Source: a virus (lineage: Duplodnaviria > Heunggongvirae > Uroviricota > Caudoviricetes). From it: 12,475 bases of DNA. The first letter of the stretch is position 1. Each line of letters starts with the position of its first letter. The position numbers and the translations under genes are program-made. Under the pieces are notes generated by a model, which was not told the origin of the DNA, did no database searches, and saw only the letters and a list, made by a program, of their open reading frames with translations. This document shows positions 1-11,014 of the stretch, one piece after another. The stretch lies in IMG/VR virus record IMGVR_UViG_2923286960_000002; one strand, written 5' to 3'.

Positions 1-1230
1 ATGAGCAGAGCACTTAACAAACTGAGCGATACACAGCTGAGGAAAATCAACGGCACACCCGCCCAAAAAACAGCCTTTCTTAATGACGGTGGAAACCTGA
101 GCGTCAGGCATTCAACCAGCGGCCTTTTAACCTGGTATTTCACCTACAGGGCCGGAACGGGAAGGGGAGCACGACCGGAACGGATTAAGCTGGGAAATTA
201 TCCTGATCTGAGTCTGAAAGCTGCCAGGGAAAAAGCGGCACAGTGTCGCGCTTGGCTTGCTGAGGGGAAAAATCCACGTCATGAGATGAATTACACCGTA
301 CAGAAAGCGTTAAAGCCCGTAACGGTTGGCGATGCGCTTACCTACTGGCTTGAGTCTTACGTAAAGGAAAACCGCGTGGATTATGCCGCCCTGAAAAAGC
401 GCCTTAATAATCACGTAATACAGCACATTGGTGCTATGCCGCTGGATAAATGCGAGCTACGGCACTGGCTGGCCTGTTTTGACCAGGTGGCAAAGCGAAC
501 GCCTGTTACTGCCGGATTCTTGCTACAGACGTGCAAACAGGCGCTTAAGTTCTGCCGGAGGCGGCGCTATGCAATCAGCAACGTTCTTGATGATATGAGT
601 GTGGCAGACGTTGGGAAAAAACCGGATATAAGCGAGCGTGTCTTAAGCACCAAAGAACTTGGCGAATTATTGCAGGCACTGGACAAAAAAATATTTTCCC
701 CTTACTACGTCGCACTAATCCGCCTCCTGATTGTTTTCGGATGCCGGACGGTAGAACTGAGGTTATCGGAGATCAGCGAGTGGGATTTTACCGAAATGCT
801 CTGGACCGTGCCGAAAGAACACAGCAAAACGAAGGTGGCAATATTCCGGCCCATACCGGAAGCAATACTGCCGTTCGTCACGCAGCTGGTGGAGCAGAAC
901 AGGCACACGGGCTTATTGCTGGGGGAAGTGAAACAGGAAACAAGCGTGTCGCAGTACGGTAGATTAGCGCACAGGAGGCTAAAACACCCTCACTGGTCAC
1001 TGCATGACATCCGGCGCACCTTTACAACGATGCTGAACGATTTAGGCGTGGATCCTCACGTCGTGGAGCAGCTTACAGGTCATCAGATGCCAGGGATGCA
1101 ACGAGTCTATAACCATTCCCGTTATCTGGATGCGAAACGTGACGCGCTGGATATGTGGACGGAGCGGTTAGGGATACTGGCGGGAACACATGAAAACGTA
1201 ACCACATTGCCAATAGCCAGAGAAATATAA
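1..1230 (+). CDS. int: Tyrosine recombinase/integrase, P4 (CP4-57 IntA-like) family
   Basis: 409 aa ORF; C-terminal catalytic region HDIRRTFTTML...LTGHQ...RVYNHSRY matches the R/H-x-x-R/H/Y pattern of P4-type integrases; N-terminal arm-binding-like region. Window starts at its ATG. Confidence 0.93.
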   Translation: MSRALNKLSDTQLRKINGTPAQKTAFLNDGGNLSVRHSTSGLLTWYFTYRAGTGRGARPERIKLGNYPDLSLKAAREKAAQCRAWLAEGKNPRHEMNYTVQKALKPVTVGDALTYWLESYVKENRVDYAALKKRLNNHVIQHIGAMPLDKCELRHWLACFDQVAKRTPVTAGFLLQTCKQALKFCRRRRYAISNVLDDMSVADVGKKPDISERVLSTKELGELLQALDKKIFSPYYVALIRLLIVFGCRTVELRLSEISEWDFTEMLWTVPKEHSKTKVAIFRPIPEAILPFVTQLVEQNRHTGLLLGEVKQETSVSQYGRLAHRRLKHPHWSLHDIRRTFTTMLNDLGVDPHVVEQLTGHQMPGMQRVYNHSRYLDAKRDALDMWTERLGILAGTHENVTTLPIAREI

Positions 1231-1253
1231 TTTTTTTTGCGATTTTTCAGGAT

Positions 1254-1313
1254 GCGGACAACGTGAAACAACGAGACACAACGACGAACAACAAGGAACA
1301 AAATGGAACAACG
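1254..1313. repeat. Six tandem 10-bp units with ACAAC(G) core, one helical turn apart
   Basis: ggacaACG tgaaACAACG agacACAACG acgaACAACA aggaACAAAA tggaACAACG, directly after the int stop codon. Confidence 0.6.
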
Positions 1314-1595
1314 GGTTAAAAATCAGCCATCGTAATAACCATTTGATTTTTATAGGTGTACTGTTTTTTTATACACTGGCGAATCACTCTTAAAAATATG
1401 TAAAAAAGGCGTAAAAGTAAAATTTTATGCCTTTGCATCATAATGAATTAAAAGAGTTTTTATTCTCATTCCCCCTGCTTCTGTAAAACGACCGCCGCCA
1501 GTGTTTGCCATTCCACAAACACCCTGACACAATCCGACACAACCCAACCCAATAATCCACCCAATGACTCTTTAAGAAACAACAAAGGGGGAATT

Positions 1596-1784
1596 GTGTT
1601 AAGCACAGATCGCTTTATACGTGAAAAAGAATGTCAGCAACTTACAGGCCTGAGCCGCTCATGTCGGTACCGCCTGGAAAAAGCCGGACAATTCCCATCA
1701 CGGCGTAAGCTGGGCGGTCGTTCCGTTGGCTGGTCTTTATCCGAAGTTCTGGCATGGAAGGACAGCTGCGAGGCAGTTCACTAA
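1596..1784 (+). CDS. alpA: AlpA-family (excisionase-like) HTH regulator
   Basis: 62 aa, GTG start preceded by AAAGGGGG SD; motif LTGLSRSCRYRLEKAGQFP...KLGGRSVGW typical of the prophage AlpA/Xis-like family; sits just downstream of int as in CP4-57/PICI layouts. Confidence 0.85.
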   Translation: MLSTDRFIREKECQQLTGLSRSCRYRLEKAGQFPSRRKLGGRSVGWSLSEVLAWKDSCEAVH

Positions 1785-1836
1785 TCAGGCTGGCGGCACA
1801 CAGCCGCCACCCATCCACTAATACAGAGATCTAACC

Positions 1837-3129
1837 ATGAATACTGGATATTCTCCCGAACAAGGGCGGGGCTTCGTTCGTCCTGAAAAACAGAATCTGC
1901 AAAATTTTGCCGAAAGTATTCCGGTTATTTCCGGCCTTACTGGCGGGAGTGAAACCAATATTGTTAACGCCAGAGCGTTGCAGATGTTTGATGATAAAAA
2001 GGGAGTAAATTTAACTTACACCCCTGACGGCAATCAGAATATGAGCATTATCTCTGAGTCAGGTTTCTACAAACTAATAAAAACAAAAAGCGCCCCGTTG
2101 CCGGAGCGCCTTTGTGAACAATTAACCTACTGCGCAAAAAATGAATCTGAGCAGTGGGATTATATCAACCATGTGGAGAAGCGCCACAATTGCCGAATAA
2201 CGGGCAAAACAAAGGCCACCCGCTACGGTGGCCCCTCGACACAAGCTACACGTTATCCCCAACGCATGAGCATTGCCAACAATGCCACATTTGCGGCTGG
2301 TGGGCAATGCAATCAGTCTGGTTCAGTTCGTTGCCATACCTGCAATGAGCGCTTTTCCCTGTACTCTTTAAGGAATTGCTCAAGGGCAAAAGCACATGGC
2401 GCGAATCTTTCTGATTCATGCTCTATCTTTCTGCGCCGTCTTTTCCGTGCCGGTGATAATGTTTTGGTCAATTCTTTATCGGTCATTGTGTTGTCCTGCA
2501 TAGCAATGCGCCGTAATACCTTACACCACGGCGCTGATGGTGATTACTCTGGTTCTTTGGCCTTGCGGCGCTGGCGATATTCAACTTCTCGTTTTAATGC
2601 CGCAGTAACAAATTGCCCCGTACTTTCGCCAGGCATTTTTACCGCCTCAACATTGTTCATAACTTCATGCGGAACCCTTGCCGCAACGGTTTGTGATTTT
2701 GCGTTTACTGCTTTTGTCGCCATGTGGTGTACCCCTCATAAAAAACAAATGCAGTATGCAGGAAAAAAAATAAGTGTTCAACACTTGACGTGTTTAACAC
2801 CTGGGTTTAAATTGGTGTTCAACACCTTGTTGGCGCAAGGTGCAGAAACGACGAAACCCGGCAGTGCGCTAACACTAACCGGGCTTCTAACCACCAACGA
2901 TAGCGAAAGTATCGAGGTAGCTATGCGAAATCATACCACACACCCGCAAGGGCGGGACTCGCACAACCTGAATAAATACATCTGGCGTTTTATCGCCCTG
3001 AGCACGGCACAACCGCGCGTGATTACCATTGAGGCCACCAGCGAACAGGAAGCACGCCAGCAATCTCCGGCTGGCTGCGTGATGGTATTCGCTGCCCGTA
3101 TTCGTCAGGAGGTGTGCCATGTGCAATAA
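1837..3129 (+). CDS. Bro-N-like domain ORF (antirepressor-like N-terminus); 3' two-thirds of the frame doubtful, possibly degraded
   Basis: N-terminal ~110 aa resemble the Bro-N domain (NLQNF..., DDKKGV..TPDGNQNMSIISESGFYKLIKTKSAP). From about aa 120 the frame is Cys/Ser/Thr/Arg-rich and poor in Asp/Glu/Lys, and it is antisense to a well-supported RHH gene. No clear SD before the ATG. Confidence 0.4.
   Translation: MNTGYSPEQGRGFVRPEKQNLQNFAESIPVISGLTGGSETNIVNARALQMFDDKKGVNLTYTPDGNQNMSIISESGFYKLIKTKSAPLPERLCEQLTYCAKNESEQWDYINHVEKRHNCRITGKTKATRYGGPSTQATRYPQRMSIANNATFAAGGQCNQSGSVRCHTCNERFSLYSLRNCSRAKAHGANLSDSCSIFLRRLFRAGDNVLVNSLSVIVLSCIAMRRNTLHHGADGDYSGSLALRRWRYSTSRFNAAVTNCPVLSPGIFTASTLFITSCGTLAATVCDFAFTAFVAMWCTPHKKQMQYAGKKISVQHLTCLTPGFKLVFNTLLAQGAETTKPGSALTLTGLLTTNDSESIEVAMRNHTTHPQGRDSHNLNKYIWRFIALSTAQPRVITIEATSEQEARQQSPAGCVMVFAARIRQEVCHVQ
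2313..2501 (-). CDS. Hypothetical small basic protein, second gene of the leftward RHH operon
   Basis: 62 aa, highly charged (KRRRRK), 42 nt downstream of the RHH gene on the same strand; no recognisable fold by eye. Confidence 0.3.
   Translation of the reverse strand: MQDNTMTDKELTKTLSPARKRRRRKIEHESERFAPCAFALEQFLKEYREKRSLQVWQRTEPD
2544..2723 (-). CDS. Ribbon-helix-helix (Arc/CopG/MetJ-like) DNA-binding protein, putative island repressor
   Basis: 59 aa ORF below the track's length cutoff: MATKAVNAKSQTVAARVPHEVMNNVEAVKMPGESTGQFVTAALKREVEYRQRRKAKEPE. Beta-strand/helix/G-x-S-T helix pattern of RHH proteins; GAGGGG SD ~9 nt upstream of ATG; three palindromic operators immediately upstream. Confidence 0.55.
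   Translation of the reverse strand: MATKAVNAKSQTVAARVPHEVMNNVEAVKMPGESTGQFVTAALKREVEYRQRRKAKEPE
2753..2826. promoter_or_regulatory. Divergent promoter/operator switch with three GTGTT-N-AACAC palindromes
   Basis: O1 2774-2784 gtgttcaacac, O2 2790-2800 gtgtttaacac, O3 2815-2825 gtgttcaacac. Rightward promoter TTGACG (2785-2790), 17 nt spacer, TAAATT (2808-2813). Leftward promoter TTGAAC (complement of 2776-2781), 17 nt, CATACT (complement of 2753-2758). O1 overlaps the leftward -35, O2 lies in the rightward spacer, O3 just after the rightward -10. Confidence 0.55.
2923..3129 (+). CDS. Hypothetical 68 aa protein; alternative first gene of the rightward operon (same frame as the 3' end of the 1837 ORF)
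   Basis: ATG at 2923 preceded by GAGGT; lies ~100 nt downstream of the rightward promoter; its stop overlaps the next start (ATGTGCAATAA). Confidence 0.3.
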   Translation: MRNHTTHPQGRDSHNLNKYIWRFIALSTAQPRVITIEATSEQEARQQSPAGCVMVFAARIRQEVCHVQ

Positions 3130-3358
3130 CATCCGTCCGGACGCAGCCGCCGAAGCCATCATAACGCTAATGCACGCGCTGATTGATATTTCTGTTATCG
3201 CAGACATGGCGCATAAGCACGCCACCAGTGAAACAGAATATGCCGGGGCTTTCGTTCCTCATTCGCTGGCGGTTATGCAACTTAGTGCGGATATGGCGCT
3301 GAATGAGGCCAAAGCCATCCTGATTGCTGATTGTGAAAATGGGGGGGGTTATGCGTGA
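3119..3358 (+). CDS. Hypothetical protein (79 aa)
   Basis: ORF translationally coupled to its neighbours; acidic, helical-looking composition; no recognisable family by eye. Confidence 0.5.
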   Translation: MCNNIRPDAAAEAIITLMHALIDISVIADMAHKHATSETEYAGAFVPHSLAVMQLSADMALNEAKAILIADCENGGGYA

Positions 3359-3584
3359 TGATCGTTTTAATTCCCTGAAACAGGAATTTTCCGGCGTTCC
3401 TGATGATGCGGCTGATGCGCTTTCGTCAATGCCAGAACTTATTAGAGCGGCTTTTTTCTTACTTTCCACGAGAGAATATAAATCAACGGGGCTTGATGTA
3501 CTGAATATCGCCGCCGATTATGCGGAATATGTGGCAGAGGCGCGTTACAGAAGAAAATTTCCTGAGGATGTAAGCCATGCGTGA
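3351..3584 (+). CDS. Hypothetical protein (77 aa; start chosen at the ATG behind a G-rich SD)
   Basis: Track ORF begins at 3324, but GGGGGGG at 3341-3347 precedes the ATG at 3351; start overlaps the upstream stop (ATGcgTGA). Confidence 0.5.
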   Translation: MRDDRFNSLKQEFSGVPDDAADALSSMPELIRAAFFLLSTREYKSTGLDVLNIAADYAEYVAEARYRRKFPEDVSHA

Positions 3585-3810
3585 TATTTACCACGAAACA
3601 ATAGACCGCGCATTTCTTGCACTTTCTCACAGTGAAAACATGCTGGAAATATTGCGCATATGGCTTGAAACACTTGGCGACAATGAACGCGACAAACAAA
3701 AATCAAGAATTGCCACGGCATTAATAACGCTTCTTGAGCCTGTAATAATGGAACTGCAAGAAATAGATCTATTGCACGACAGATATAAAGAACAGCACAC
3801 CGGAGAATAA
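3577..3810 (+). CDS. Hypothetical protein (77 aa)
   Basis: Start overlaps the stop of the upstream gene (ATGcgTGA at 3577-3584); protein-like composition. Confidence 0.5.
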   Translation: MRDIYHETIDRAFLALSHSENMLEILRIWLETLGDNERDKQKSRIATALITLLEPVIMELQEIDLLHDRYKEQHTGE

Positions 3811-3815
3811 AAATA

Positions 3816-4115
3816 ATGAAACTTAAATATTCTGGCTTAACTGCCAGTGGCAACACTCACCCTAAATTTACGCGCGGTGATATTTACCGCGACCAGTACG
3901 GCGGCACGGTAATGATTAAGGGCGTGGAAGAACGGCGTGTAACCTACCGCCGTGAAGGTTACGAATATGATTGCGTGATGCCTGTTTATCAGTTCCGGCG
4001 TGATTTTTCTCTGGTACAGACCGCGCCGCATAACGTGCCCACCAGCAACGCCAGGGCACGGGCAAACATCCAGAAGCTGAAAACCATGATTAACGGATTC
4101 AGGGGTAAAAAATGA
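3816..4115 (+). CDS. Hypothetical protein (99 aa), possibly a conserved enterobacterial prophage small protein
   Basis: Motif GDIYRDQYGGTVMIKGVEERRVTYRREGYEYDC; stop overlaps the start of the replication gene (ATGA at 4112-4115). Confidence 0.5.
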   Translation: MKLKYSGLTASGNTHPKFTRGDIYRDQYGGTVMIKGVEERRVTYRREGYEYDCVMPVYQFRRDFSLVQTAPHNVPTSNARARANIQKLKTMINGFRGKK

Positions 4116-5866
4116 AACTGGCACCGAACGTAAAACAGCAGTCACGCGGCATAAAACACAAAGGAACAGAAGTCATTATTTTTGCGGGTAGTGATGCCTG
4201 GGCACACGCGAAACAATGGCAGGAACATGATGCGCGTATGGCCGGAGATAATGAGCCTCCTGTGTGGCTTGGGGAGCAGCAGTTATCAGAACTGGATAAG
4301 CTGCAAATTGTGCCGGAAGGCAGAAAATCCGTGCGCATATTCAGGGCCGGATATCTTGCGCCAGTAATGATAAAGGCGATTGGCCAGAAGCTGGCGGCGG
4401 CAGGCGTACAGGATGCAAATTTTTACCCTGATGGTATGCACGGTCAGAAGGTGGAGAACTGGCGCGAATATCTGGCCCGTGAGCGCCAGAATCTTTCTGA
4501 TGGTCTGGTCATTGAGCTTCCGGTAAAGCAAAAGGCGCAACTTTCGCAGATGGCGGACAGTGAGCGCGCGCAGCTGCTTGCCGATCGCTTTGATGGCGTT
4601 TGCGTACATCCTGAAAGTGAAATCGTTCACGTATGGCGCGGCGGGGTATGGTGTCCGGTCAGCACAATGGAGCTTAGCCGCGAAATGGTGGCGATCTATT
4701 CAGAGCACAGGGCCACTTTCAGCAAGCGCGTAATCAATAACGCCGTGGAAGCGTTAAAAGTTATTGCCGAACCAATGGGCGAGCCGTCCGGCGATTTGCT
4801 GCCGTTCGCCAATGGTGCGCTTGACCTGAAAACGGGGGAATTTTCCCCGCACACGCCGGAGAACTGGATCACCACGCACAACGGCATTGAGTACACGCCA
4901 CCAGCACCCGGGGAGAACATCCGCGATAACGCGCCAAACTTTCATAAATGGCTTGAGCACGCAGCCGGAAAAGACCCGCGCAAGATGATGCGTATATGTG
5001 CCGCGCTGTACATGATTATGGCGAACCGGTACGACTGGCAGATGTTTATTGAGGCCACCGGAGACGGCGGGAGCGGTAAAAGTACATTCACACACATAGC
5101 CAGCCTTCTGGCAGGGAAACAGAACACGGTAAGCGCTGAAATGACATCGCTTGATGATGCTGGTGGACGTGCGCAGGTTGTCGGGAGTCGTCTTATCGTC
5201 CTGGCTGACCAGCCGAAATATACAGGCGAAGGAACGGGCATCAAGAAAATCACAGGCGGCGACCCCGTGGAAGTTAACCCGAAATATGAAAAGCGTTTCA
5301 CGGCGGTAATCAGGGCGGTGGTGCTGGCGACCAACAACAACCCGATGATATTCACCGAACGGGCCGGAGGTGTGGCACGTCGTCGCGTGATTTTCCGTTT
5401 CGACAATATCGTCAGTGAGGCCGACAAAGACAGGGAGCTACCGGAAAAGATTGCGGCTGAAATCCCTGTGATTATCCGCCGATTACTGGCGAACTTTTCC
5501 GCCCCTGAAAAGGCACGGGCTTTACTCATTGAACAGCGTGACGGTGATGAAGCACTGGCGATAAAGCAGCAAACGGATCCGGTTATTGAGTTTTGCCAGT
5601 TCCTGAATTTTCTGGAGGAAGCGCGCGGCCTGATGATGGGGGGCGGTGGCGATTCAGTGAAGTACACGACCAGGAACAGCCTTTACCGCGTCTATCTGGC
5701 GTTTATGGCATACGCAGGCAGGAGCAAACCGCTAAACGTAAATGACTTTGGCAAGGCTATGAAGCCAGCCGCGAAAGTTTACGGACATGAATATATTACG
5801 CGGAAAGTTAAGGGAGTAACGCAGACTAACGCAATAACAACAGACGATTGCGACGCGTTTTTATAA
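4112..5866 (+). CDS. Replication initiator/helicase, P4 alpha C-terminal-like (D5_N + SF3 helicase); PICI Pri-Rep-like
   Basis: 584 aa; Walker A GDGGSGKST near aa 315 followed by a hydrophobic strand ending LIVLAD; overall resemblance to the phage/plasmid primase P4-family C-terminal domain. No TOPRIM or AEP primase motif recognised by eye in the N-terminal 300 aa. Confidence 0.88.
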   Translation: MKLAPNVKQQSRGIKHKGTEVIIFAGSDAWAHAKQWQEHDARMAGDNEPPVWLGEQQLSELDKLQIVPEGRKSVRIFRAGYLAPVMIKAIGQKLAAAGVQDANFYPDGMHGQKVENWREYLARERQNLSDGLVIELPVKQKAQLSQMADSERAQLLADRFDGVCVHPESEIVHVWRGGVWCPVSTMELSREMVAIYSEHRATFSKRVINNAVEALKVIAEPMGEPSGDLLPFANGALDLKTGEFSPHTPENWITTHNGIEYTPPAPGENIRDNAPNFHKWLEHAAGKDPRKMMRICAALYMIMANRYDWQMFIEATGDGGSGKSTFTHIASLLAGKQNTVSAEMTSLDDAGGRAQVVGSRLIVLADQPKYTGEGTGIKKITGGDPVEVNPKYEKRFTAVIRAVVLATNNNPMIFTERAGGVARRRVIFRFDNIVSEADKDRELPEKIAAEIPVIIRRLLANFSAPEKARALLIEQRDGDEALAIKQQTDPVIEFCQFLNFLEEARGLMMGGGGDSVKYTTRNSLYRVYLAFMAYAGRSKPLNVNDFGKAMKPAAKVYGHEYITRKVKGVTQTNAITTDDCDAFL

Positions 5867-5880
5867 TTTTTTGCAATGGC

Positions 5881-6104
5881 TGTCTACCCTGTCTACCTGA
5901 GTAAAGAAAAATACATTTAATTCAGTATATTAACTTAGGTAGACAGCCTTTTTTCACTGTCTACCTACTATCTACCCTCTCTACCTGATTTTACCTGAAT
6001 CAGACAGGGAGGTAGATACGGGGTAGATAGTGGATAAAAGCACTCTACCCCGCTGAAAGCCGCGCCATTACTGGCATGAGAGCCAGTAAGGTAGATAAGG
6101 TAGA
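5881..6104. repeat. Replication origin: about 11 iterons with TCTACC core in both orientations flanking an AT-rich spacer
   Basis: tgTCTACCc (5883), tgTCTACCt (5893), GGTAGAca (5939), TCTACC (5960, 5971, 5980), GGTAGA (6011, 6022), TCTACC (6044), GGTAGA (6090, 6099); AT-rich 5905-5935. Directly downstream of the replication gene, as in SaPI/PICI origins. Confidence 0.75.
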
Positions 6105-6154
6105 CAAGGGGAGGCACAACTCAAAACTTTTTAAACGAGGGGGTAAAAATAAAA

Positions 6155-6412
6155 ATGCGCACATCAGGAAAACTTAATAATCAGAAGAAGCAGCATAACC
6201 GCGCCATTGACCTTACAGAGCACTGGCTGAGAGTGGCGATAAAAATCATCGACCGCAACACGGGGGAAGGATACGCGAAAGCACATCCCGACCTGATAAG
6301 CGCATTCATGACCACGGCGGCGGCAAACTTTGCCACGCTGACAGAACGGGAGATTGCCGAAGCGGAACAGGTAACAACCATCAACGTTAAAACCGGAGAG
6401 GTGGAATCATGA
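6155..6412 (+). CDS. Hypothetical protein (85 aa)
   Basis: Strong SD GAGGGGG upstream; stop overlaps the SSB-like start (ATGA at 6409-6412). Confidence 0.5.
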   Translation: MRTSGKLNNQKKQHNRAIDLTEHWLRVAIKIIDRNTGEGYAKAHPDLISAFMTTAAANFATLTEREIAEAEQVTTINVKTGEVES

Positions 6413-6831
6413 CAGCACAGATAGCAGCTTACGGGCGGCTGGTGGACGACCCGCAGGTAAAACAGACCAGCAAGGGCACACCAATGACGCTGGCACGTAT
6501 GGCGGTCCCCCTTCCGTGCAGCCAGGCAGATGACGGAACGGCGACGATGTGGTTATCCGTCCTGGCATTTGGCAGACAGGCCGAAGCACTGGAAAGGCAC
6601 CGCAAGGGTGAACTCCTGAGCGTGGCGGGTAACATGCAGATCAGCCAGTGGACTGGGCAGAACTGAGAAACGCGGCAGGGCTGGCAGGTTATCGCAGACA
6701 GTGTAATCAGTGCGCGAACGGCGCGACTGGGCGGCAAAAAAGGTCAACAGGGCCAGGCTACTGACGCGCTGAACAGGGCAAAACAACAGGCGGGGAATGA
6801 TGATCCGTACGGGGATAACATACCGTTTTAA
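6409..6831 (+). pseudogene. ssb: SSB-like OB-fold protein interrupted by a single in-frame TGA (6664-6666); nonsense mutation, readthrough or sequencing error
   Basis: N-terminal 85 aa align to the SSB OB fold (YGRLVDDPQVKQTSKG...WLSVLAFGRQAEALERHRKGELLSVAGNMQISQWTGQN). The same frame continues after the TGA for 54 codons and ends in the SSB acidic tip ...DDPYGDNIPF. The TGA sits where SSB has a conserved Gly codon. Confidence 0.7.
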
Positions 6832-6846
6832 GCGACGAGTGACAGA

Positions 6847-6869
6847 AGCCGGAGCAATCCGGCTTTTTT
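6847..6869 (+). terminator. Rho-independent terminator
   Basis: Stem agccgga/tccggct, loop gcaa, followed by a T run. Confidence 0.6.
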
Positions 6870-6917
6870 ACGGGTCCTCCTGGCGGGGTGGGCCTGAACA
6901 CGGGGCGGGAGGCGCGG
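6869..6917 (+). other. Degenerate cos-like sequence, paralogous to the cos at 9311-9360
   Basis: tacgggtcctcctgg...acggggcgggaggcgcgg parallels tacgggtcctttccgg...acggggcggcgacctcgcgg, but the cohesive-end core is altered. Confidence 0.45.
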
Positions 6918-7044
6918 AAAAAAGCGCATTTTTGTGATTTTATCGTCATCATCATCATGAGCGTAATTTATTGTTTTTAATTGTTTTGATGCAAAAAAGA
7001 TGATGGTTATGGTTAATTTTTGTTCGACATCTTTGCAGGCAGAT

Positions 7045-7085
7045 AAAAAAGCCCGATAAGGTCAGAGGTGGCTTATCGGGCTTTT
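7045..7085. terminator. Bidirectional hairpin terminator
   Basis: Perfect 10-bp stem gcccgataag/cttatcgggc with 11-nt loop, A run upstream and T run downstream. Confidence 0.5.
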
Positions 7086-7161
7086 GCATATGAGGCTTTT
7101 TGGTGCACTGACACACATGATCGGGATAATCATTTCATAATTTGCAACACAACTCAATATC

Positions 7162-7211
7162 ATTGCACAAAATGCAATCATGATTATAATCAGAGCTGGA
7201 TGAACATCCAG
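7162..7211 (+). promoter_or_regulatory. Head-operon promoter with overlapping palindromes
   Basis: -35 TTGCAC (7163-7168), 16 nt spacer, perfect -10 TATAAT (7185-7190); palindrome ATTGCAcaaaaTGCAAT (7162-7178) over the -35 and perfect 16-bp palindrome CTGGATGAACATCCAG (7196-7211) near +1. Confidence 0.5.
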
Positions 7212-7246
7212 TTATGATTTTTTAAGTCGAAGAGGAATTTCTTACT

Positions 7247-7453
7247 ATGGCTGAAGAGAAAAAAGGCGGTGTTTCGGTGTACATAAGCCCCGAAATCGTG
7301 GAGGTGCTCAAGCAGCGCCACAAAAAAAACTATGAGGCTGGCGTGGCGGCTGGACTGGATCCGCTGATGACGCCGGAGCCGTCGATAGGTTCACTTGTAC
7401 GCTCTTATTTACTTGCGGCGCTTGGGATGCATAAAAATTATGGGGGTGAATAA
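7247..7453 (+). CDS. Hypothetical protein (68 aa), first gene of the head operon
   Basis: SD GAGGA upstream; stop overlaps the capsid gene start (TAATG); no recognisable family by eye. Confidence 0.5.
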   Translation: MAEEKKGGVSVYISPEIVEVLKQRHKKNYEAGVAAGLDPLMTPEPSIGSLVRSYLLAALGMHKNYGGE

Positions 7454-8508
7454 TGGCAGGAAAAGCAACGGCACTTAACACTAACCAGCTTTTCATGTAC
7501 CTGAATCGCGGGGATATTGCGGATTTTAAATTCAGCCCTCTGTTTACCACGCTGTTTTTCCCGAACGTGGCGACATTCAGCACGCAAAACATCATGCTGG
7601 ATACCCTGGACATTGAAGAAGTCACCATGTCGGCGTTTTGTTCGCCTATGGTGGGTAGCCAGGTTCAGCGCGATAAAGGGTACGAAACCAGCACGATTAA
7701 ACCTGGCTACATGAAGCCAAAGCACGAAATCGATCCAACGAAAACCATCATGCGCATGGCTGGAGAAGATCCGGCACAGCTTAACGACCCTACCTATCGC
7801 CGTATGCGCCTGATTACTGGCAATATGCGCCGCCAGATAAACGCCATAAAAGCGCGCGTGGAATGGCTGGCGGTAAATGCGGTAACGACCGGAAAAAACA
7901 TCATTGAGGGCGAAGGCATAGAGCGCTATGAAATCGACTGGAAGATCCCAAGTAAAAATATCGCCAGACAGGGACATGGCAAAAAGTGGTCAGAGGCAGA
8001 TAAGGAAACACACGATCCAATCTATGACATTGAGCTATACGCAGATCAGGCAGGTTGCCCCGCAAACGTCATGATTATGGGCGTTGATGTATGGCGCATG
8101 TTACGCAGCTTTAAAAAATTCCGTGAACTGTACGATCTCTCCCGTGGTTCAGAATCCGCCGCAGAGCTGGCATGTAAAAACCTGGGCGAAGTGGTGAGCT
8201 TTAAAGGCTATCTTGGTGATCTGGCCCTTATCGTCTATTCCGGCAAATACACTGACAGCGACGGCACAGAAAAATATTTCCTTGAGCCTGATTTGCTTGT
8301 CCTGGGCAACACCAACAATAAAGGGCTGGTGGCCTATGGTGCGATTATGGATCAGGACGCAGTAAGAACGGGGGCAACGCAAAACATGTACTACCCGAAA
8401 AACTGGATTGAGGACGGAGATCCGGCGATTGAGTACGTGCAGACGCACAGCGCACCGCAGCCGGTTCCGGCAGATATTCGCAAATTTGTTACTGTCAAAA
8501 TTGCTTAA
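7453..8508 (+). CDS. Major capsid protein, lambda gpE family
   Basis: 351 aa; conserved blocks shared with lambda gpE as recalled: FKFSPLF..LFF, PGYMKPKHE, EDPAQLNDPTYRR, WSEADKETHDP, VSFKGYLGD.A.IVYSG.Y, LVLGNT, YPKNW...GDPA, SAP. Confidence 0.92.
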   Translation: MAGKATALNTNQLFMYLNRGDIADFKFSPLFTTLFFPNVATFSTQNIMLDTLDIEEVTMSAFCSPMVGSQVQRDKGYETSTIKPGYMKPKHEIDPTKTIMRMAGEDPAQLNDPTYRRMRLITGNMRRQINAIKARVEWLAVNAVTTGKNIIEGEGIERYEIDWKIPSKNIARQGHGKKWSEADKETHDPIYDIELYADQAGCPANVMIMGVDVWRMLRSFKKFRELYDLSRGSESAAELACKNLGEVVSFKGYLGDLALIVYSGKYTDSDGTEKYFLEPDLLVLGNTNNKGLVAYGAIMDQDAVRTGATQNMYYPKNWIEDGDPAIEYVQTHSAPQPVPADIRKFVTVKIA

Positions 8509-8519
8509 CGGGGGATTCT

Positions 8520-8855
8520 ATGGACACTCCATACATTGAGTTATTTGCAGGCAGTCAGCAGGTCGCCACGACGCTGGTACATTTTGCCGCTGATGCTGGC
8601 GTTATTCAGGAATTTACCCCGCTGATGCTGGCGGACAATGGCGAGTTTAAGCCGTGGGATGGTCAGGAATCTGGCAAGGCTGTTTATCTGACTTCGTATC
8701 CTGTGGACACGTCAAAGCAGAAATCAGCACAGTGTTACAAGACGGGGATATTCAATATTGCCGCCGTTAACTGGCCTGAGAGCGTCGACACCGATGCGAA
8801 AAAATGCGCCGCCTTTGCGGGTTCCGGCGTATCCGTTCAGCCGCTGGCCCGATAA
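8520..8855 (+). CDS. Head decoration protein, lambda gpD-like
   Basis: 111 aa; TPLMLADNGEFKPWDG..., YKTGIFNIAAVNWPESVDTDAKKCAAFAGSGVSV parallels lambda gpD TPLMLDTSSRKLVAWDG..., YKSGTF.YEDVLWPEA..DETKKRTAFAGTAISIV. Confidence 0.85.
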   Translation: MDTPYIELFAGSQQVATTLVHFAADAGVIQEFTPLMLADNGEFKPWDGQESGKAVYLTSYPVDTSKQKSAQCYKTGIFNIAAVNWPESVDTDAKKCAAFAGSGVSVQPLAR

Positions 8856-8867
8856 GCAGGGGGAACG

Positions 8868-9281
8868 ATGGCAACGAATGAAAGCATCATGACGCTACCG
8901 CTGGCGAGTAAATTTAAAGCCGAAGCGCGGGCAATGGCTGACAGAGGTTTATCAACCTATGAGGCCGTATATCAACTAAACAAACTGGAAGAGCAGGACA
9001 AGCCGCGCGCTGATGCGATTATGGCGCTTCATGAGCATAAAGACTATCAGCCGCTGTTACGTGCAATGGCAAACGTGCCATGTATTAGCGTCGATAATGC
9101 TCGTGAAATCCTGAACATGACCATAGAGCAGGAGCGCCCAAAGGTTGCACCAGAGCTTACCGCAGCCTTTGAAAACTTTATGGACATGCACAGCCCGCAA
9201 GCCGTATCAGCTGGCATGGCATACGATGGCAGAAACCAGGGCGATGACGGCGACATCGATCGCATACTGAAAACCATCTGA
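8868..9281 (+). CDS. Hypothetical protein (137 aa), last gene of the head operon
   Basis: Good SD and protein-like composition; position analogous to lambda FI but no similarity recognised by eye. Confidence 0.5.
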   Translation: MATNESIMTLPLASKFKAEARAMADRGLSTYEAVYQLNKLEEQDKPRADAIMALHEHKDYQPLLRAMANVPCISVDNAREILNMTIEQERPKVAPELTAAFENFMDMHSPQAVSAGMAYDGRNQGDDGDIDRILKTI

Positions 9282-9286
9282 GACAA

Positions 9287-9311
9287 GGCCGGAGAAATCC
9301 GGCTTTTTTTT
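9287..9311 (+). terminator. Rho-independent terminator
   Basis: Stem gccgga/tccggc with gaaa loop followed by T8; near-identical to the hairpin at 6847-6869. Confidence 0.6.
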
Positions 9312-9392
9312 ACGGGTCCTTTCCGGCATATGGACCCGTTACGGGGCGGCGACCTCGCGGGTTTTCGCTATTTATGACGTTTTTCCGTGAAG
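9311..9392 (+). other. Lambda-type cos site (cos1): cosQ/cosN plus a short cosB-like segment
   Basis: tacgggtcctttccgg...ccgttacg | GGGCGGCGACCT (9344-9355) CGCGGGTTTTCGCTATTTATGA matches the lambda right-end/left-end junction as recalled, with the 12-nt cohesive end identical; followed by an R3-like cgtttttccgtg. Lies ~90 bp upstream of the Nu1-like gene. Confidence 0.85.
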
Positions 9393-9444
9393 GTGACACC
9401 ACCACCACTTGATTAATATTTAACCATGCAGTTAAGGTAACATT

Positions 9445-9885
9445 ATGATTGATAAAGCTTGTTTTGTAAGTCAGCAGGAAATAGCTGAACATTTCAAGGT
9501 TAACAGAACCACTATTCGCGCATGGACCAAACAGGGGATGCCGTATCTTAATGCGGATCGCGGAAAGTCTGGCGGTTATCACATCGGGCATACATTGCTT
9601 TGGTCTTCAGGTAAAAGCCGTCTTGAGGCCATCAGATATCACGTAGAAACCAGTGTGCTGGAAAAAATTATGTTTGCCAGGCTGCTTTCATCTGAGCGTG
9701 ACGAGTACTCCAGTGAAGAAACAGAACATAGATTTGATGAAGGTTTACAGATTTACGGCTACTCACCGGAAGAAGTGAGCAAAGCGCGAAATAAAATGGC
9801 CGGCTTTCTGGCTGGGTGGCGTCATGCCGTAAGCGTTCGCCGTGCCAGCATGGAACAATCAGTCGTTACAGAACAGCAAAGTTAA
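9445..9885 (+). CDS. Nu1-like HTH protein: small terminase subunit or TerS-mimicking packaging redirector (Rpp-like)
   Basis: 146 aa; N-terminus FVSQQEIAEHFKVNRTTIRAWTKQGMPYL..GKSGGYHIGHTLLW resembles the lambda Nu1 winged-HTH DNA-binding domain (QLADIFGASIRTIQNWQEQGMPVL...); SD AAGGT upstream. Confidence 0.75.
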   Translation: MIDKACFVSQQEIAEHFKVNRTTIRAWTKQGMPYLNADRGKSGGYHIGHTLLWSSGKSRLEAIRYHVETSVLEKIMFARLLSSERDEYSSEETEHRFDEGLQIYGYSPEEVSKARNKMAGFLAGWRHAVSVRRASMEQSVVTEQQS

Positions 9886-9914
9886 AAATCACTTTCTGTT
9901 ACGCCATCAAATAC

Positions 9915-10011
9915 GCAATACAACAACCACGTATTTTTTTAAAACTATTTGATTCAATTAGCATTTTTTTATTTTTAGCATCAAAAAAACACTATCAGGT
10001 TGTTGTATTGC
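9915..10011. repeat. 14-bp perfect inverted repeat flanking a 69-bp AT-rich segment (candidate cosB with TerS R-sites and a bend site)
   Basis: GCAATACAACAACC at 9915-9928 and GGTTGTTGTATTGC at 9998-10011; the intervening sequence is AT-rich with an IHF-like aATCAAatagTTt on the bottom strand. Confidence 0.5.
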
Positions 10012-10079
10012 TCTTTATTTTTACTTAGTTATCAAATGGATATGACAAACAATTAAACAACAACCTCCCTCTAAAAAAG

Positions 10080-10150
10080 CTCATAAATAGCGAAAAACCG
10101 CGAGGTCGCCGCCCCGTAACGGGCCATAATTCCAGGAAGGACCCGACGAC
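10080..10150 (-). other. Second lambda-type cos site (cos2), inverted relative to cos1
   Basis: Reverse complement reads cgggtccttcctgg...ggcccgttacg GGGCGGCGACCT CGCGGTTTTTCGCTATTTATGAG (12-mer at complement of 10103-10114), near-identical to cos1 over ~45 bp. Confidence 0.8.
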
Positions 10151-10178
10151 ACCAGACTATCAGAACGATGGGGGCACA

Positions 10179-10460
10179 ATGACAGAAGCCGAAATACTGC
10201 GATTAATCCGCCGCGTTGCCGGAATCAGCCAGCAGGCCGACGAACAGACCACGCAGCCGGACAGCGTGACCGCCGAAAATTATGTTCGTGTGGTTGCTGA
10301 GATGATTCGCCGTAATGGTATCCAGCTTAATGATGTGGATATGCGCAACATACGGATCCGCGTTCTTGAAATGCTGGCCTACAATCGCCGCGTGGCACTG
10401 TATCGGGAAACGGAGAAAATTACGTACCACTGGAAGAAGCCGGAGCGGTTGCGGCGGTAA
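10179..10460 (+). CDS. Hypothetical protein (93 aa)
   Basis: ATG preceded by GGGGG SD; charged, helical-looking composition; no family recognised by eye. Confidence 0.45.
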   Translation: MTEAEILRLIRRVAGISQQADEQTTQPDSVTAENYVRVVAEMIRRNGIQLNDVDMRNIRIRVLEMLAYNRRVALYRETEKITYHWKKPERLRR

Positions 10461-10628
10461 CTGGTTGATATTTTCGAAATTCGCCAGCGGCGAACATCGG
10501 GGAAACCAGCCTAACCCGTTGATATTTTCGGGAACCTCAAATTGAGGAGGTCGGAAACATAACCCGTCATATTCTGGATGCTGATAATTACCACGCAGCC
10601 CATTAAGGCCTAACCCGTTGATTCTTCC
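10458..10628. repeat. Four direct repeats with TAACCCGTTGAT-like core at ~50-bp spacing
   Basis: taactggttgatattttcg (10458), taacccgttgatattttcg (10512), taacccgtcatattctgg (10560), taacccgttgattcttcc (10611). Confidence 0.55.
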
Positions 10629-10633
10629 ACAAT

Positions 10634-10798
10634 CCCCCATTGGGGGAGGCTGGGCGGCCTGCTGTGGGCTTTTCCACCATTGGTGGAAAGGCGCACATCT
10701 GGATCATCATTACGGTGATCAAGGGTATGTAAAACCCACCAGCCTGATTGACATTTAACCGGAAAAAAGCCAGGTAGCCCCATTATGGGGATCCCCAT
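10634..10798. repeat. Cluster of short GC-rich palindromes
   Basis: CCCCCATTGGGGG (10634-10646), TTCCACCATTGGTGGAA (10672-10688), CCCCATTATGGGG (10778-10790), ATGGGGATCCCCAT (10785-10798). Confidence 0.4.
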
Positions 10799-11014
10799 AT
10801 CGACATTAACGCCCCTCATGAATTGGCGCGCTTCCCCCTGGAAAGATGACCCGCCTGTATATTTCTTGTGTCTATTTGTTCCACGTTGTTTCATACAGTG
10901 CAACGATCGGTGTAGTTAATGGTGTAGTCAATTTGCGATTTTTAGCACTTTTTGCAGTGCGAATCATTTAATTAAATCAATGGCTTGCCTTGATGTAGTG
11001 ATAAAAGGGCATAT

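Follow-up and report, generated by a model that had tools for sequence, protein, structure and literature searches.

A predicted ribbon-helix-helix repressor with allele-specific operators and a SymR-like antisense RNA in the EcCICFT073 family of satellite islands

In Staphylococcus aureus pathogenicity islands (SaPIs) and Gram-positive phage-inducible chromosomal islands (PICIs), a repressor, Stl or Rpr, is encoded divergently from the excision/replication operon and keeps the island silent (PMC6092414). In EcCICFT073, the prototype Gram-negative PICI, AlpA is an activator that is induced by the helper and is necessary for induction, and its overexpression alone is sufficient for excision and replication; the authors of that work called the global repressor in Gram-negative PICIs “unclear” (PMC6092414). 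In another island, EcCIMP1, the reported repressor is a PerC-like protein. Here, we analyze a 12,475-nucleotide (nt) stretch of DNA, referred to below as the window (virus record IMGVR_UViG_2923286960_000002, Caudoviricetes). By sequence comparison, it is an allele of EcCICFT073 (the island occupies positions 1 to 10900), because strain CFT073 contains this island, too, at the same chromosomal site and with Int and AlpA proteins that are identical to those of the window. We describe a 59–amino acid (aa) protein, unrelated to the PerC-like repressor of EcCIMP1, which is encoded on the minus strand next to three palindromic repeats. We consider it probable that this member of the YlcI/YnfO family is a small repressor that binds operators, most likely as a ribbon-helix-helix (RHH) dimer, and acts as the immunity repressor of EcCICFT073-type PICIs.

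The immI region of phage P22 encodes two RHH repressors, Mnt and Arc, and contains the divergent promoters Pmnt and Pant as well as the sar antisense RNA. The features that the window appears to share with immI are small RHH repressors that are autoregulated, operators over back-to-back promoters, and a short antisense RNA over a ribosome-binding site in the repressed operon, an operon of the antirepressor/Bro world. Unlike immI, the window contains one repressor gene rather than two and three separate 11–base pair (bp) sites. The operon predicted to be repressed is the replication operon of a satellite, and a long open frame on the opposite strand encloses the repressor gene, whose product has no significant similarity to Arc or Mnt. 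In the P1 immI region (c4-icd-ant), as is proposed for the window, the gene of an icd-type cell-division inhibitor is translated first in the immunity operon and is controlled by a small RNA at its ribosome-binding site. However, c4 is a sense-strand, trans-acting, processed RNA, and no Rfam C4 match was found in the window.

For satellite P4, Forti et al. in 1999 reportedly found that transcription can read through when transcripts of the upstream promoter are translated into the long form. The P4 Kil protein is the end of Eta, which starts upstream beside an alpA homologue, and translation of Eta prevents termination (PMC10111431). The window resembles P4 in having an alpA/vis homologue followed by a long Bro-network open reading frame (ORF) that ends in a small toxic or cell-division protein with an internal promoter, and in the primase operon located downstream. 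While P4 relies on a processed sense-strand CI RNA and has no protein repressor, the window contains a predicted protein repressor encoded in antisense orientation and a cis-antisense RNA. Neither the repressor nor the 430-aa ORF described below has detectable sequence similarity to P4 proteins, including Eta.

An earlier note on this DNA, made from the sequence alone, compared the 59-aa protein to Stl. Apart from the divergent position of the gene, this analogy does not hold. Stl is a larger helix-turn-helix protein with a helper-sensing domain, is encoded in the same orientation as int, and is inactivated by a helper protein. In contrast, the window protein consists of a single small domain with no second one, its gene converges with int and alpA, and AlpA mediates induction in this island family. 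In domain content and gene orientation, the protein thus does not conform to the Stl type.

Operators, divergent promoters and the 59-aa protein

The divergent region of the window contains the following features:

2544–2723, minus strand: repressor gene (59 aa, ATG start), YlcI/YnfO family; predicted RHH repressor
2732–2737, minus strand: Shine-Dalgarno sequence of the repressor gene (GAGGGG), identified in the sequence 8 nt ahead of the start codon
2753–2781, minus strand: putative leftward promoter of the repressor gene, with −35 TTGAAC (2781–2776, inside the first palindrome), a 17-nt spacer, and −10 CATACT (2758–2753)
2774–2784, no strand: putative operator site 3 (GTGTTCAACAC), covering the −35 of the repressor promoter and directly adjacent to that of the rightward promoter
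2785–2813, plus strand: putative rightward promoter of the icd-like-to-primase operon, TTGACG (2785–2790), 17 nt, TAAATT (2808–2813)
2790–2800, no strand: putative operator site 2 (GTGTTTAACAC), which starts 1 nt after the −35 and fills the spacer of the rightward promoter
2815–2825, no strand: putative operator site 1 (GTGTTCAACAC), which begins 2 nt after the −10 and lies over the rightward transcription start

The ORF, its ATG, and the strong Shine-Dalgarno sequence pointed out in the earlier note are all present. So are the three palindromes: the copies of GTGTTNAACAC at 2774–2784, 2790–2800, and 2815–2825 are exact, and a repeat finder groups them as one family. The only other match with at most one mismatch in the 12.5 kb is at position 1596, while 0.38 matches are expected by chance; none of 200 shuffled sequences contained four or more matches, so the cluster is nonrandom. 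The back-to-back promoters under the palindromes also lie where they had been described, the rightward one being found by a promoter scan and the leftward one read by eye.

To follow this arrangement in relatives, we compared 31 loci with a homologue of the repressor gene, one genome per species, counting additional repeats over 6 kb per locus. The gene order is conserved: int and alpA are followed by variable cargo, then by the repressor gene, which diverges from the icd-like gene and the operon leading to the primase gene. The three-site layout is present in ~25 loci, which come from Escherichia coli, Edwardsiella, Pectobacterium, Kosakonia, Dryocola, Yokenella, Limnobaculum, Serratia, Enterobacter, Xenorhabdus, Proteus, and Tenebrionibacter. 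Within a divergent region of ~200 bp, copies of a single 11-mer are found at −77 (counted from the repressor ATG; almost all relatives) and at about −100 (−99 to −103). The third site is fused to the TATACT −10 element of the repressor promoter at −32 in most relatives, and is located at −61 in loci of the window type. Elsewhere in each 6-kb locus, 0 to 1 copies of the 11-mer were found. The −10 element of the repressor promoter (TATACT or CATACT) is at −36/−35 from the ATG in nearly all relatives, and the Shine-Dalgarno sequence is conserved as well. The rightward promoter, TTGA(C/A) and TAnnnT separated by 17 ± 1 nt, is kept in 20 loci; there, site 2 begins one nucleotide beyond the −35, and site 1 lies on the −10/+1. 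Judging from these aligned positions, the sites have the geometry of promoter occlusion.

The outer bases of the repeats, GTG...CAC or CTG...CAG, are constant. The inner bases vary from locus to locus, and they track residues 11 to 17 of the 59-aa protein. Proteins with SQT[VLI]AAR are found with GTGTTGAACAC (inner TTGAA), those with SQ[AS]LK[AS]R with GTGTGGCCCAC (inner TGGCC), which is the operator type of CFT073, S[KR]KLEAR with GTGTCAGCCAC (inner TCAGC), and SQK[LV]Q[AT]RA with GTGGACTCCAC (inner GACTC); SQKMSAR goes with CTGGCACCCAG and SQSVTAR with GTGTCTTACAC. Together with further classes, there are at least nine specificity classes. In the 13 pairs of loci that share an operator, at most 2 of the 7 strand residues differ (mean of 1.0), compared to a mean of 8 of 34 residues elsewhere in the protein. 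In the 140 pairs with different operators, 3.9 of the 7 strand residues differ on average. In a partial Mantel test, the observed value was reached in 100 of 20,000 permutations. Such co-variation is the signature of a protein that reads the sites, and these comparisons strongly support the view that the replication operon is controlled by an autorepressor that binds operators. AlpA cannot be the reader of the repeats, because identical AlpA occurs in islands with different repeats: E. coli islands with identical Int and AlpA contain three different repressor/operator cassettes.

The protein itself belongs to a narrow family. It matches the NCBIfam YlcI/YnfO model NF041551 over all of its positions (1–42 of 42) with a score of 59.7 bits (E = 2.1e-16; cutoff of 30 bits). 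Contrary to the earlier note, its gene is already annotated: RefSeq lists the product as WP_000201461.1, “YlcI/YnfO family protein.” In the searchable literature, which leaves subscription journals outside, no function is given for YlcI, YnfO, or DUF3950, and no RHH protein is linked to PICIs. We found 74 homologues, in Enterobacterales, and an exhaustive profile search of 1.8 billion proteins yielded 81 clusters at 50% identity. An alignment of 35 sequences contains 15 invariant and 8 near-invariant columns across genera, so purifying selection is evident.

An AlphaFold2 model [mean predicted local distance difference test (pLDDT) score of 78; 90 in the core] contains an extended N terminus followed by a helix at residues 19 to 28, a turn, and a second helix at residues 35 to 56. 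The turn, G32-E33-S34, is invariant in the 35 sequences, and the predicted β strand comprises approximately residues 10 to 17. The model and the alignment thus contain the order that characterizes RHH proteins, a strand, a helix, a G-x-S/T/N turn, and a helix within ~45 residues. Distant members of the family match the RHH_1 (4.5e-4) and PSK_trans_fac (2.9e-4) models; the window protein itself has no significant match to an RHH sequence model, and a Foldseek search of the PDB with its structural model returned no match. The RHH pattern claimed in the earlier note is therefore supported by the layout of strand, turn, and helices but not by sequence models. Overall, the 59-aa protein likely has the RHH fold, for which these data provide weak support. 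As in RHH proteins, it would act as a dimer whose paired β strands enter the major groove; the co-variation of residues 11 to 17 with the operator core is indirect support for this mode of binding.

Two observations concern the family outside the islands. In the K-12 prophage DLP12 (locus L039, 6252–6446), ylcI, the namesake of the family, encodes a protein that shares 22% identity with that of the window. The gene diverges from nohD, a homologue of the small terminase gene, and lies beside the region in which cos is expected; no obvious triple repeat was seen upstream of it. Members of the family in lambdoid prophages may have a different target. In a tblastn search of a phage collection, the family was almost absent. 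The one record with the repressor/icd-like module is LR881103.1 (8988–9525; Escherichia phage vB_KppS-Ant, “induced prophage”), whose size of 16.5 kb suggests a satellite deposited as a phage.

The antisense RNA, the Icd-like gene and the long open frame

The start of the rightward operon contains four overlapping features:

2845–2922, minus strand: predicted structured antisense RNA of ~78 nt with two hairpins and a U-rich tail, complementary to the icd-like 5′ leader and Shine-Dalgarno sequence
2930–2938, minus strand: candidate extended −10 promoter of the antisense RNA, TGgTATGAT, inside the first icd-like codons
2923–3129, plus strand: Icd-like protein of 68 aa (NF033153, 69.8 bits; WP_001403026.1), first gene of the rightward operon and kil-like nested end of the long ORF
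1837–3129, plus strand: eta-like stop-free frame of 430 aa with a degenerate Bro-N fragment (aa 44–90), ending as the Icd-like protein

In an alignment of 23 loci, the RNA forms two hairpins with compensatory changes at 15 pairs. When the two strands are compared, 88 G·U and 2 A·C cells are observed, and 96% of positions are paired on the minus strand compared to 81% on the plus strand; because of this asymmetry, the structure is assigned to the minus strand. A structured leader on the sense strand was considered and rejected because of the same 88:2 ratio. Folding of the window sequence gave −35.1 kcal/mol (z = −4.45) for the minus strand and −20.5 kcal/mol (z = −1.35) for the plus strand. 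In the 23 loci, an invariant TAnnnT element precedes the conserved AGC 5′ end of the RNA by 7 nt, even though the icd-like start codon of the window type is located elsewhere. In most relatives, the RNA is complementary to the icd-like start codon as well as to the Shine-Dalgarno sequence.

The same segment (2922–2850, minus strand) matches the Rfam SymR model (RF01809) with an E value of 3e-4. Its score of 33.3 bits does not reach the gathering score of 61, so it cannot be assigned to this family by score. Matches at the same place and strand were obtained for loci L009 (45.6 bits), L008, L010, and L004, with scores of 28 to 46 bits across the five loci. Like K-12 SymR, which is paired with symE, the RNA is a cis-antisense RNA of ~77 nt that runs from the start codon of its target and whose promoter would lie inside the first codons of the target. 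When aligned with K-12 symR, it has the same start, two hairpins, and the same linker (GUGGUUAG), and its second loop, GUGUU(A/G)GCGCAC, is almost the same. Unlike SymE/SymR, its target is the Icd-like gene of a satellite and not symE, predicted RHH operators rather than a LexA box are found upstream, and the scores remain below gathering. The matches over the full length of the model and the shared motifs suggest distant homology to SymR, which may be one member of a wider family borne by satellites. For the immunity RNAs C4, isrK, and CI, the whole window gave no match at the gathering score, and the 2200–3200 segment gave none even at E ≤ 10.

A hairpin, CACCTTG...CAAGGTG at 2823–2846, adjoins operator site 1, and relatives have a hairpin of other sequence at the same place. 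It may stabilize the 5′ end of the rightward mRNA, or it may terminate the antisense RNA as a second terminator.

The long frame starts just after alpA, passes in antisense orientation through orf57 (described below) and the repressor gene, crosses the operators and the leader, and continues into the Icd-like gene; on the plus strand, it is free of stops back to position 1822. In six E. coli loci with three repressor/operator alleles, it is open for 366 to 367 codons upstream of the icd ATG. Among genus-level relatives, it is open in 15 of 24, that is, in 15 of the 16 whose spacer length is 1 modulo 3. The other two frames contain 2 to 12 stops in the intergenic segment. When the repressor gene was resampled synonymously, the value for an open antisense frame was only 0.3 to 0.6 per locus. 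On sequence alone, the small gene, which follows a putative internal promoter, is thus the in-frame end of a long ORF that starts upstream beside an alpA/vis homologue, which is the nested arrangement of P4 eta/kil.

In the earlier note, expression of the Bro-N ORF as an intact 430-aa protein was taken to speak against the repressor. The intact frame does exist, and its openness is conserved in most relatives. The repressor is not refuted by this, because P4 eta/kil uses both a long and a nested gene; by analogy, the long frame and the repressor gene are probably both used here. Automatic annotation of the region is inconsistent because of the long open frame. For the E. coli sister islands L035 (2423–2830) and L036 (1739–2240), the Prokaryotic Genome Annotation Pipeline (PGAP) lists an “Icd-like protein” of 136 aa, whose start coincides with the repressor start codon and which extends over the operators, and also an “Icd-like” pseudogene upstream of the repressor gene.

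A proposed switch and its alternatives

According to the explanation that we favor, dimers of the 59-aa protein would bind the three 11-bp GTG-N5-CAC sites of the ~200-bp divergent region. At rest, occupied sites 1 and 2 would shut the rightward promoter and keep the replication operon, from the icd-like gene to the primase gene, off, while site 3 over its own promoter would let the repressor limit its own synthesis. Residues 11 to 17, the predicted β strand, would read the inner bases, and different islands would thus have distinct repressor/operator pairs, orthogonal to one another. The antisense RNA would cover the ribosome-binding site and block translation of any leaky icd-like message. 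Upon helper infection, AlpA activates its own promoter, which is a published step. The AlpA-driven transcript, translated as the eta-like ORF, would then run head-on through the repressor gene and over the operators and the target of the antisense RNA into the replication operon; by analogy to P4 eta/kil, coupled translation would allow it to escape the repressor, the antisense RNA, and Rho-dependent termination. The sequences themselves show the gene, the sites with their arrangement and co-variation, the structure of the RNA and the strand to which it belongs, and the conservation of the open frame; from these, we infer binding, repression, the dimeric fold, the override of the repressor during induction, and the read-through.

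Several points weigh against this explanation. The loci are phylogenetically related, and the co-variation counts are therefore not fully independent. Many operator classes, such as GTGTCAGCCAC, are only pseudo-palindromic, and the distances between the sites (16, 25, and 45 bp) are not helical repeats. For the window protein, neither Pfam, searched up to E = 1 for RHH families, nor the sequences of the PDB yielded a significant match to an RHH protein: Pfam searches with it and its 35 relatives gave noise only, such as Med10, and the PDB search with the family profile gave noise as well. Alignment by hhalign to Arc and Mnt placed the strand in the expected register with a nonsignificant probability of 1.1%. 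Last, overexpression of AlpA alone induces the sister island, so the repressor is not the sole switch. The earlier note had proposed an autoregulated repressor that holds the island silent as an Stl-like master switch. Autoregulation and repression of the replication promoter remain the best reading, given the positions of the sites and the co-variation; the idea of a master switch is only partly supported, since AlpA is the known inducer and the protein has no sensor domain.

The 59-aa protein could also be a true repressor that serves only in immunity of satellite against satellite or in control of a toxic Icd-like gene, the decision between on and off being left to AlpA. We regard this as possible but distinctly less probable. 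The necessity of AlpA for induction of EcCICFT073 and the sufficiency of its overexpression (PMC6092414) fit this possibility, as do the many orthogonal classes, the presence of up to six related places per E. coli genome, and the identity of the first repressed gene, a putative cell-division inhibitor with an antisense RNA, as in type I toxin-antitoxin systems. On the other hand, the promoter predicted to be repressed heads the primase operon, so replication would be affected unless another promoter feeds the operon, and the difference from the explanation that we favor is one of emphasis only.

A toxin-antitoxin reading of the repeats involves the gene that follows the repressor gene. The minus-strand unit continues with the following features:

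2313–2486, minus strand: orf57 (62 aa if the start is at 2501), small basic protein (phrog_21027, 1.6e-15; WP_000130015.1 in CFT073 and others), accessory and predicted to be co-transcribed with the repressor gene
2208–2239, minus strand: terminator-like hairpin and UUUGUUUU located 3′ of orf57; a weak isrD-like match here covers the hairpin only
2086–2113, minus strand: second, strong intrinsic terminator, 12 pairs followed by a T-run (z = −4.99)

Sister strains annotate orf57 as a 57-aa protein starting at Met6 of the 62-aa version (2313–2501, minus strand), and its relatives have a conserved core and in-frame indels. Both terminators close the repressor-orf57 unit. The weak isrD-like match and other sub-threshold Rfam matches were considered and rejected as terminator hairpins or chance. 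On the toxin-antitoxin reading, the 59-aa protein would be a type II antitoxin paired with orf57, and the palindromes would be the autoregulatory operator of the pair, unrelated to control of the island. RHH antitoxin genes do typically precede a small toxin gene and autoregulate, and orf57 looks like a genuine, conserved gene that shares a unit with the repressor gene up to the terminators at 2239–2208 and 2113–2086. However, orf57 is confined to E. coli and Shigella and was not found beside the repressor gene in the other genera fetched, where the full three-site architecture persists, so a conserved co-inherited toxin is not present. Moreover, two of the three sites lie on the opposite promoter, and orf57 matched no toxin family in Pfam or NCBIfam. 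Such a pair is therefore very unlikely. The suggestion of the earlier note that the 62-aa ORF is a partner or a toxin fails for the same reason, and from its distribution orf57 is accessory cargo rather than a conserved partner.

A role of the repeats in packaging (cos/pac), partition, or origin function instead of transcription has hardly better prospects. YlcI/YnfO members do adjoin the small terminase gene and cos in lambdoid prophages, as K-12 ylcI does in its divergence from nohD. Some RHH proteins, such as ParG and omega, are centromere binders. But in every relative the sites are locked to the −35 spacer, to the −10/+1, and to the −10 or −35 of the repressor's own promoter; the packaging-related genes of the island are 4 to 6 kb away, and K-12 YlcI is only distantly similar to the window protein. 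The least probable of the alternatives, in our judgment, is that the eta-like ORF is the real gene and the 59-aa ORF its nonfunctional shadow, the repeats being read by something else, for example AlpA or a protein of the helper. The plus frame is indeed intact, open beyond chance in relatives, and annotated by PGAP in long forms across the region. A shadow would not account for the 15 invariant and 8 near-invariant columns of the minus-strand protein, the curated NCBIfam model, the conserved promoter and Shine-Dalgarno sequence, or relatives elsewhere such as K-12 YlcI, nor for repeats that co-vary with residues 11 to 17 of the 59-aa protein while AlpA is identical across islands with different repeats.

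Returning to the repressor as we see it, P22 immI is already known to combine RHH autorepressors, divergent promoters, and an antisense RNA, and nested eta/kil genes are known from P4. What is new is their combination in a model Gram-negative PICI, the orthogonal specificity classes, a repressor gene antisense in a long frame, and the link to SymR; in the literature accessible to us, subscription journals again being outside, this combination was not found described. The repressor is a concrete and cheaply testable candidate for how Gram-negative PICIs stay silent. At least nine orthogonal pairs of a 59-aa repressor and an 11-bp operator could be used to read out the code by which RHH proteins recognize DNA and would supply parts for synthetic circuits. 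The antisense RNA would extend the SymR family to mobile elements, and a stop-free frame that runs opposite a real gene would be an uncommon and testable instance of selection acting on translation itself. A bolder proposal, which we put forward only tentatively and consider rather doubtful as a whole, is that a three-layer switch has been overlooked in the model Gram-negative PICI. It would consist of an allele-specific RHH repressor encoded antisense in a translated eta-like ORF, a SymR-family RNA on the first gene of the replication operon, and AlpA-driven, translation-coupled read-through that would silence the repressor gene by running through it head-on, overcome the operators and the RNA, and turn the island on, with K-12 SymR being a domesticated relic of such a system.

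Island context and minor observations

The window is 100% identical to E. coli NCTC86, where the ~10-kb island is inserted between roxA and phoQ. Its left part contains:

1–1230: int
1596–1784, plus strand: alpA (Pfam Phage_AlpA, 3e-18), encoding WP_000953274.1, identical to EcCICFT073 AlpA; co-oriented with the long ORF and the replication operon

Downstream of alpA are the Bro-N remnant, the two small minus-strand genes, and then the plus-strand operon, in which the Icd-like gene (2923–3129) is followed by small ORFs, a DUF4222 gene, and the D5_N primase gene (4112–5866). The genes of the operon overlap tightly and run into the primase gene. Beyond it lie ssb (a pseudogene in the window), a lambda-E-like capsid gene, and a decoration gene. 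The CFT073 island (NC_004431.1, 1377930–1388654; locus L034) occupies the same roxA/phoQ site and has the same gene order. With int, alpA, primase/replication genes, late capsid genes, a size of ~10 kb, and a fixed site, the window has the full set of features of a Gram-negative PICI of the EcCICFT073 type. The ssb gene of the window contains an internal stop, and a PerC-family regulator gene annotated after ssb in CFT073 has no annotated counterpart in the window.

A scan of the window for tRNA and tmRNA genes found none, and no Rfam family matched it at the gathering score. The Rfam “int-alpA RNA” (RF02996) was found above the gathering threshold between int and alpA on the minus strand of two other loci, L003 (5853–5921) and L005 (5893–5961), with no match in the window. 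Between the end of int and alpA, positions 1265–1313 of the window (plus strand) contain approximately five tandem 10-bp units with ACAAC (GAAACAACGA, GACACAACGA, CGAACAACAA, GGAACAAAAT, and GGAACAACGG). In these, RAACAACR recurs at 1266, 1286, and 1306, with a period of exactly 20 bp, and the units may be arm-type sites for Int or binding sites for AlpA.

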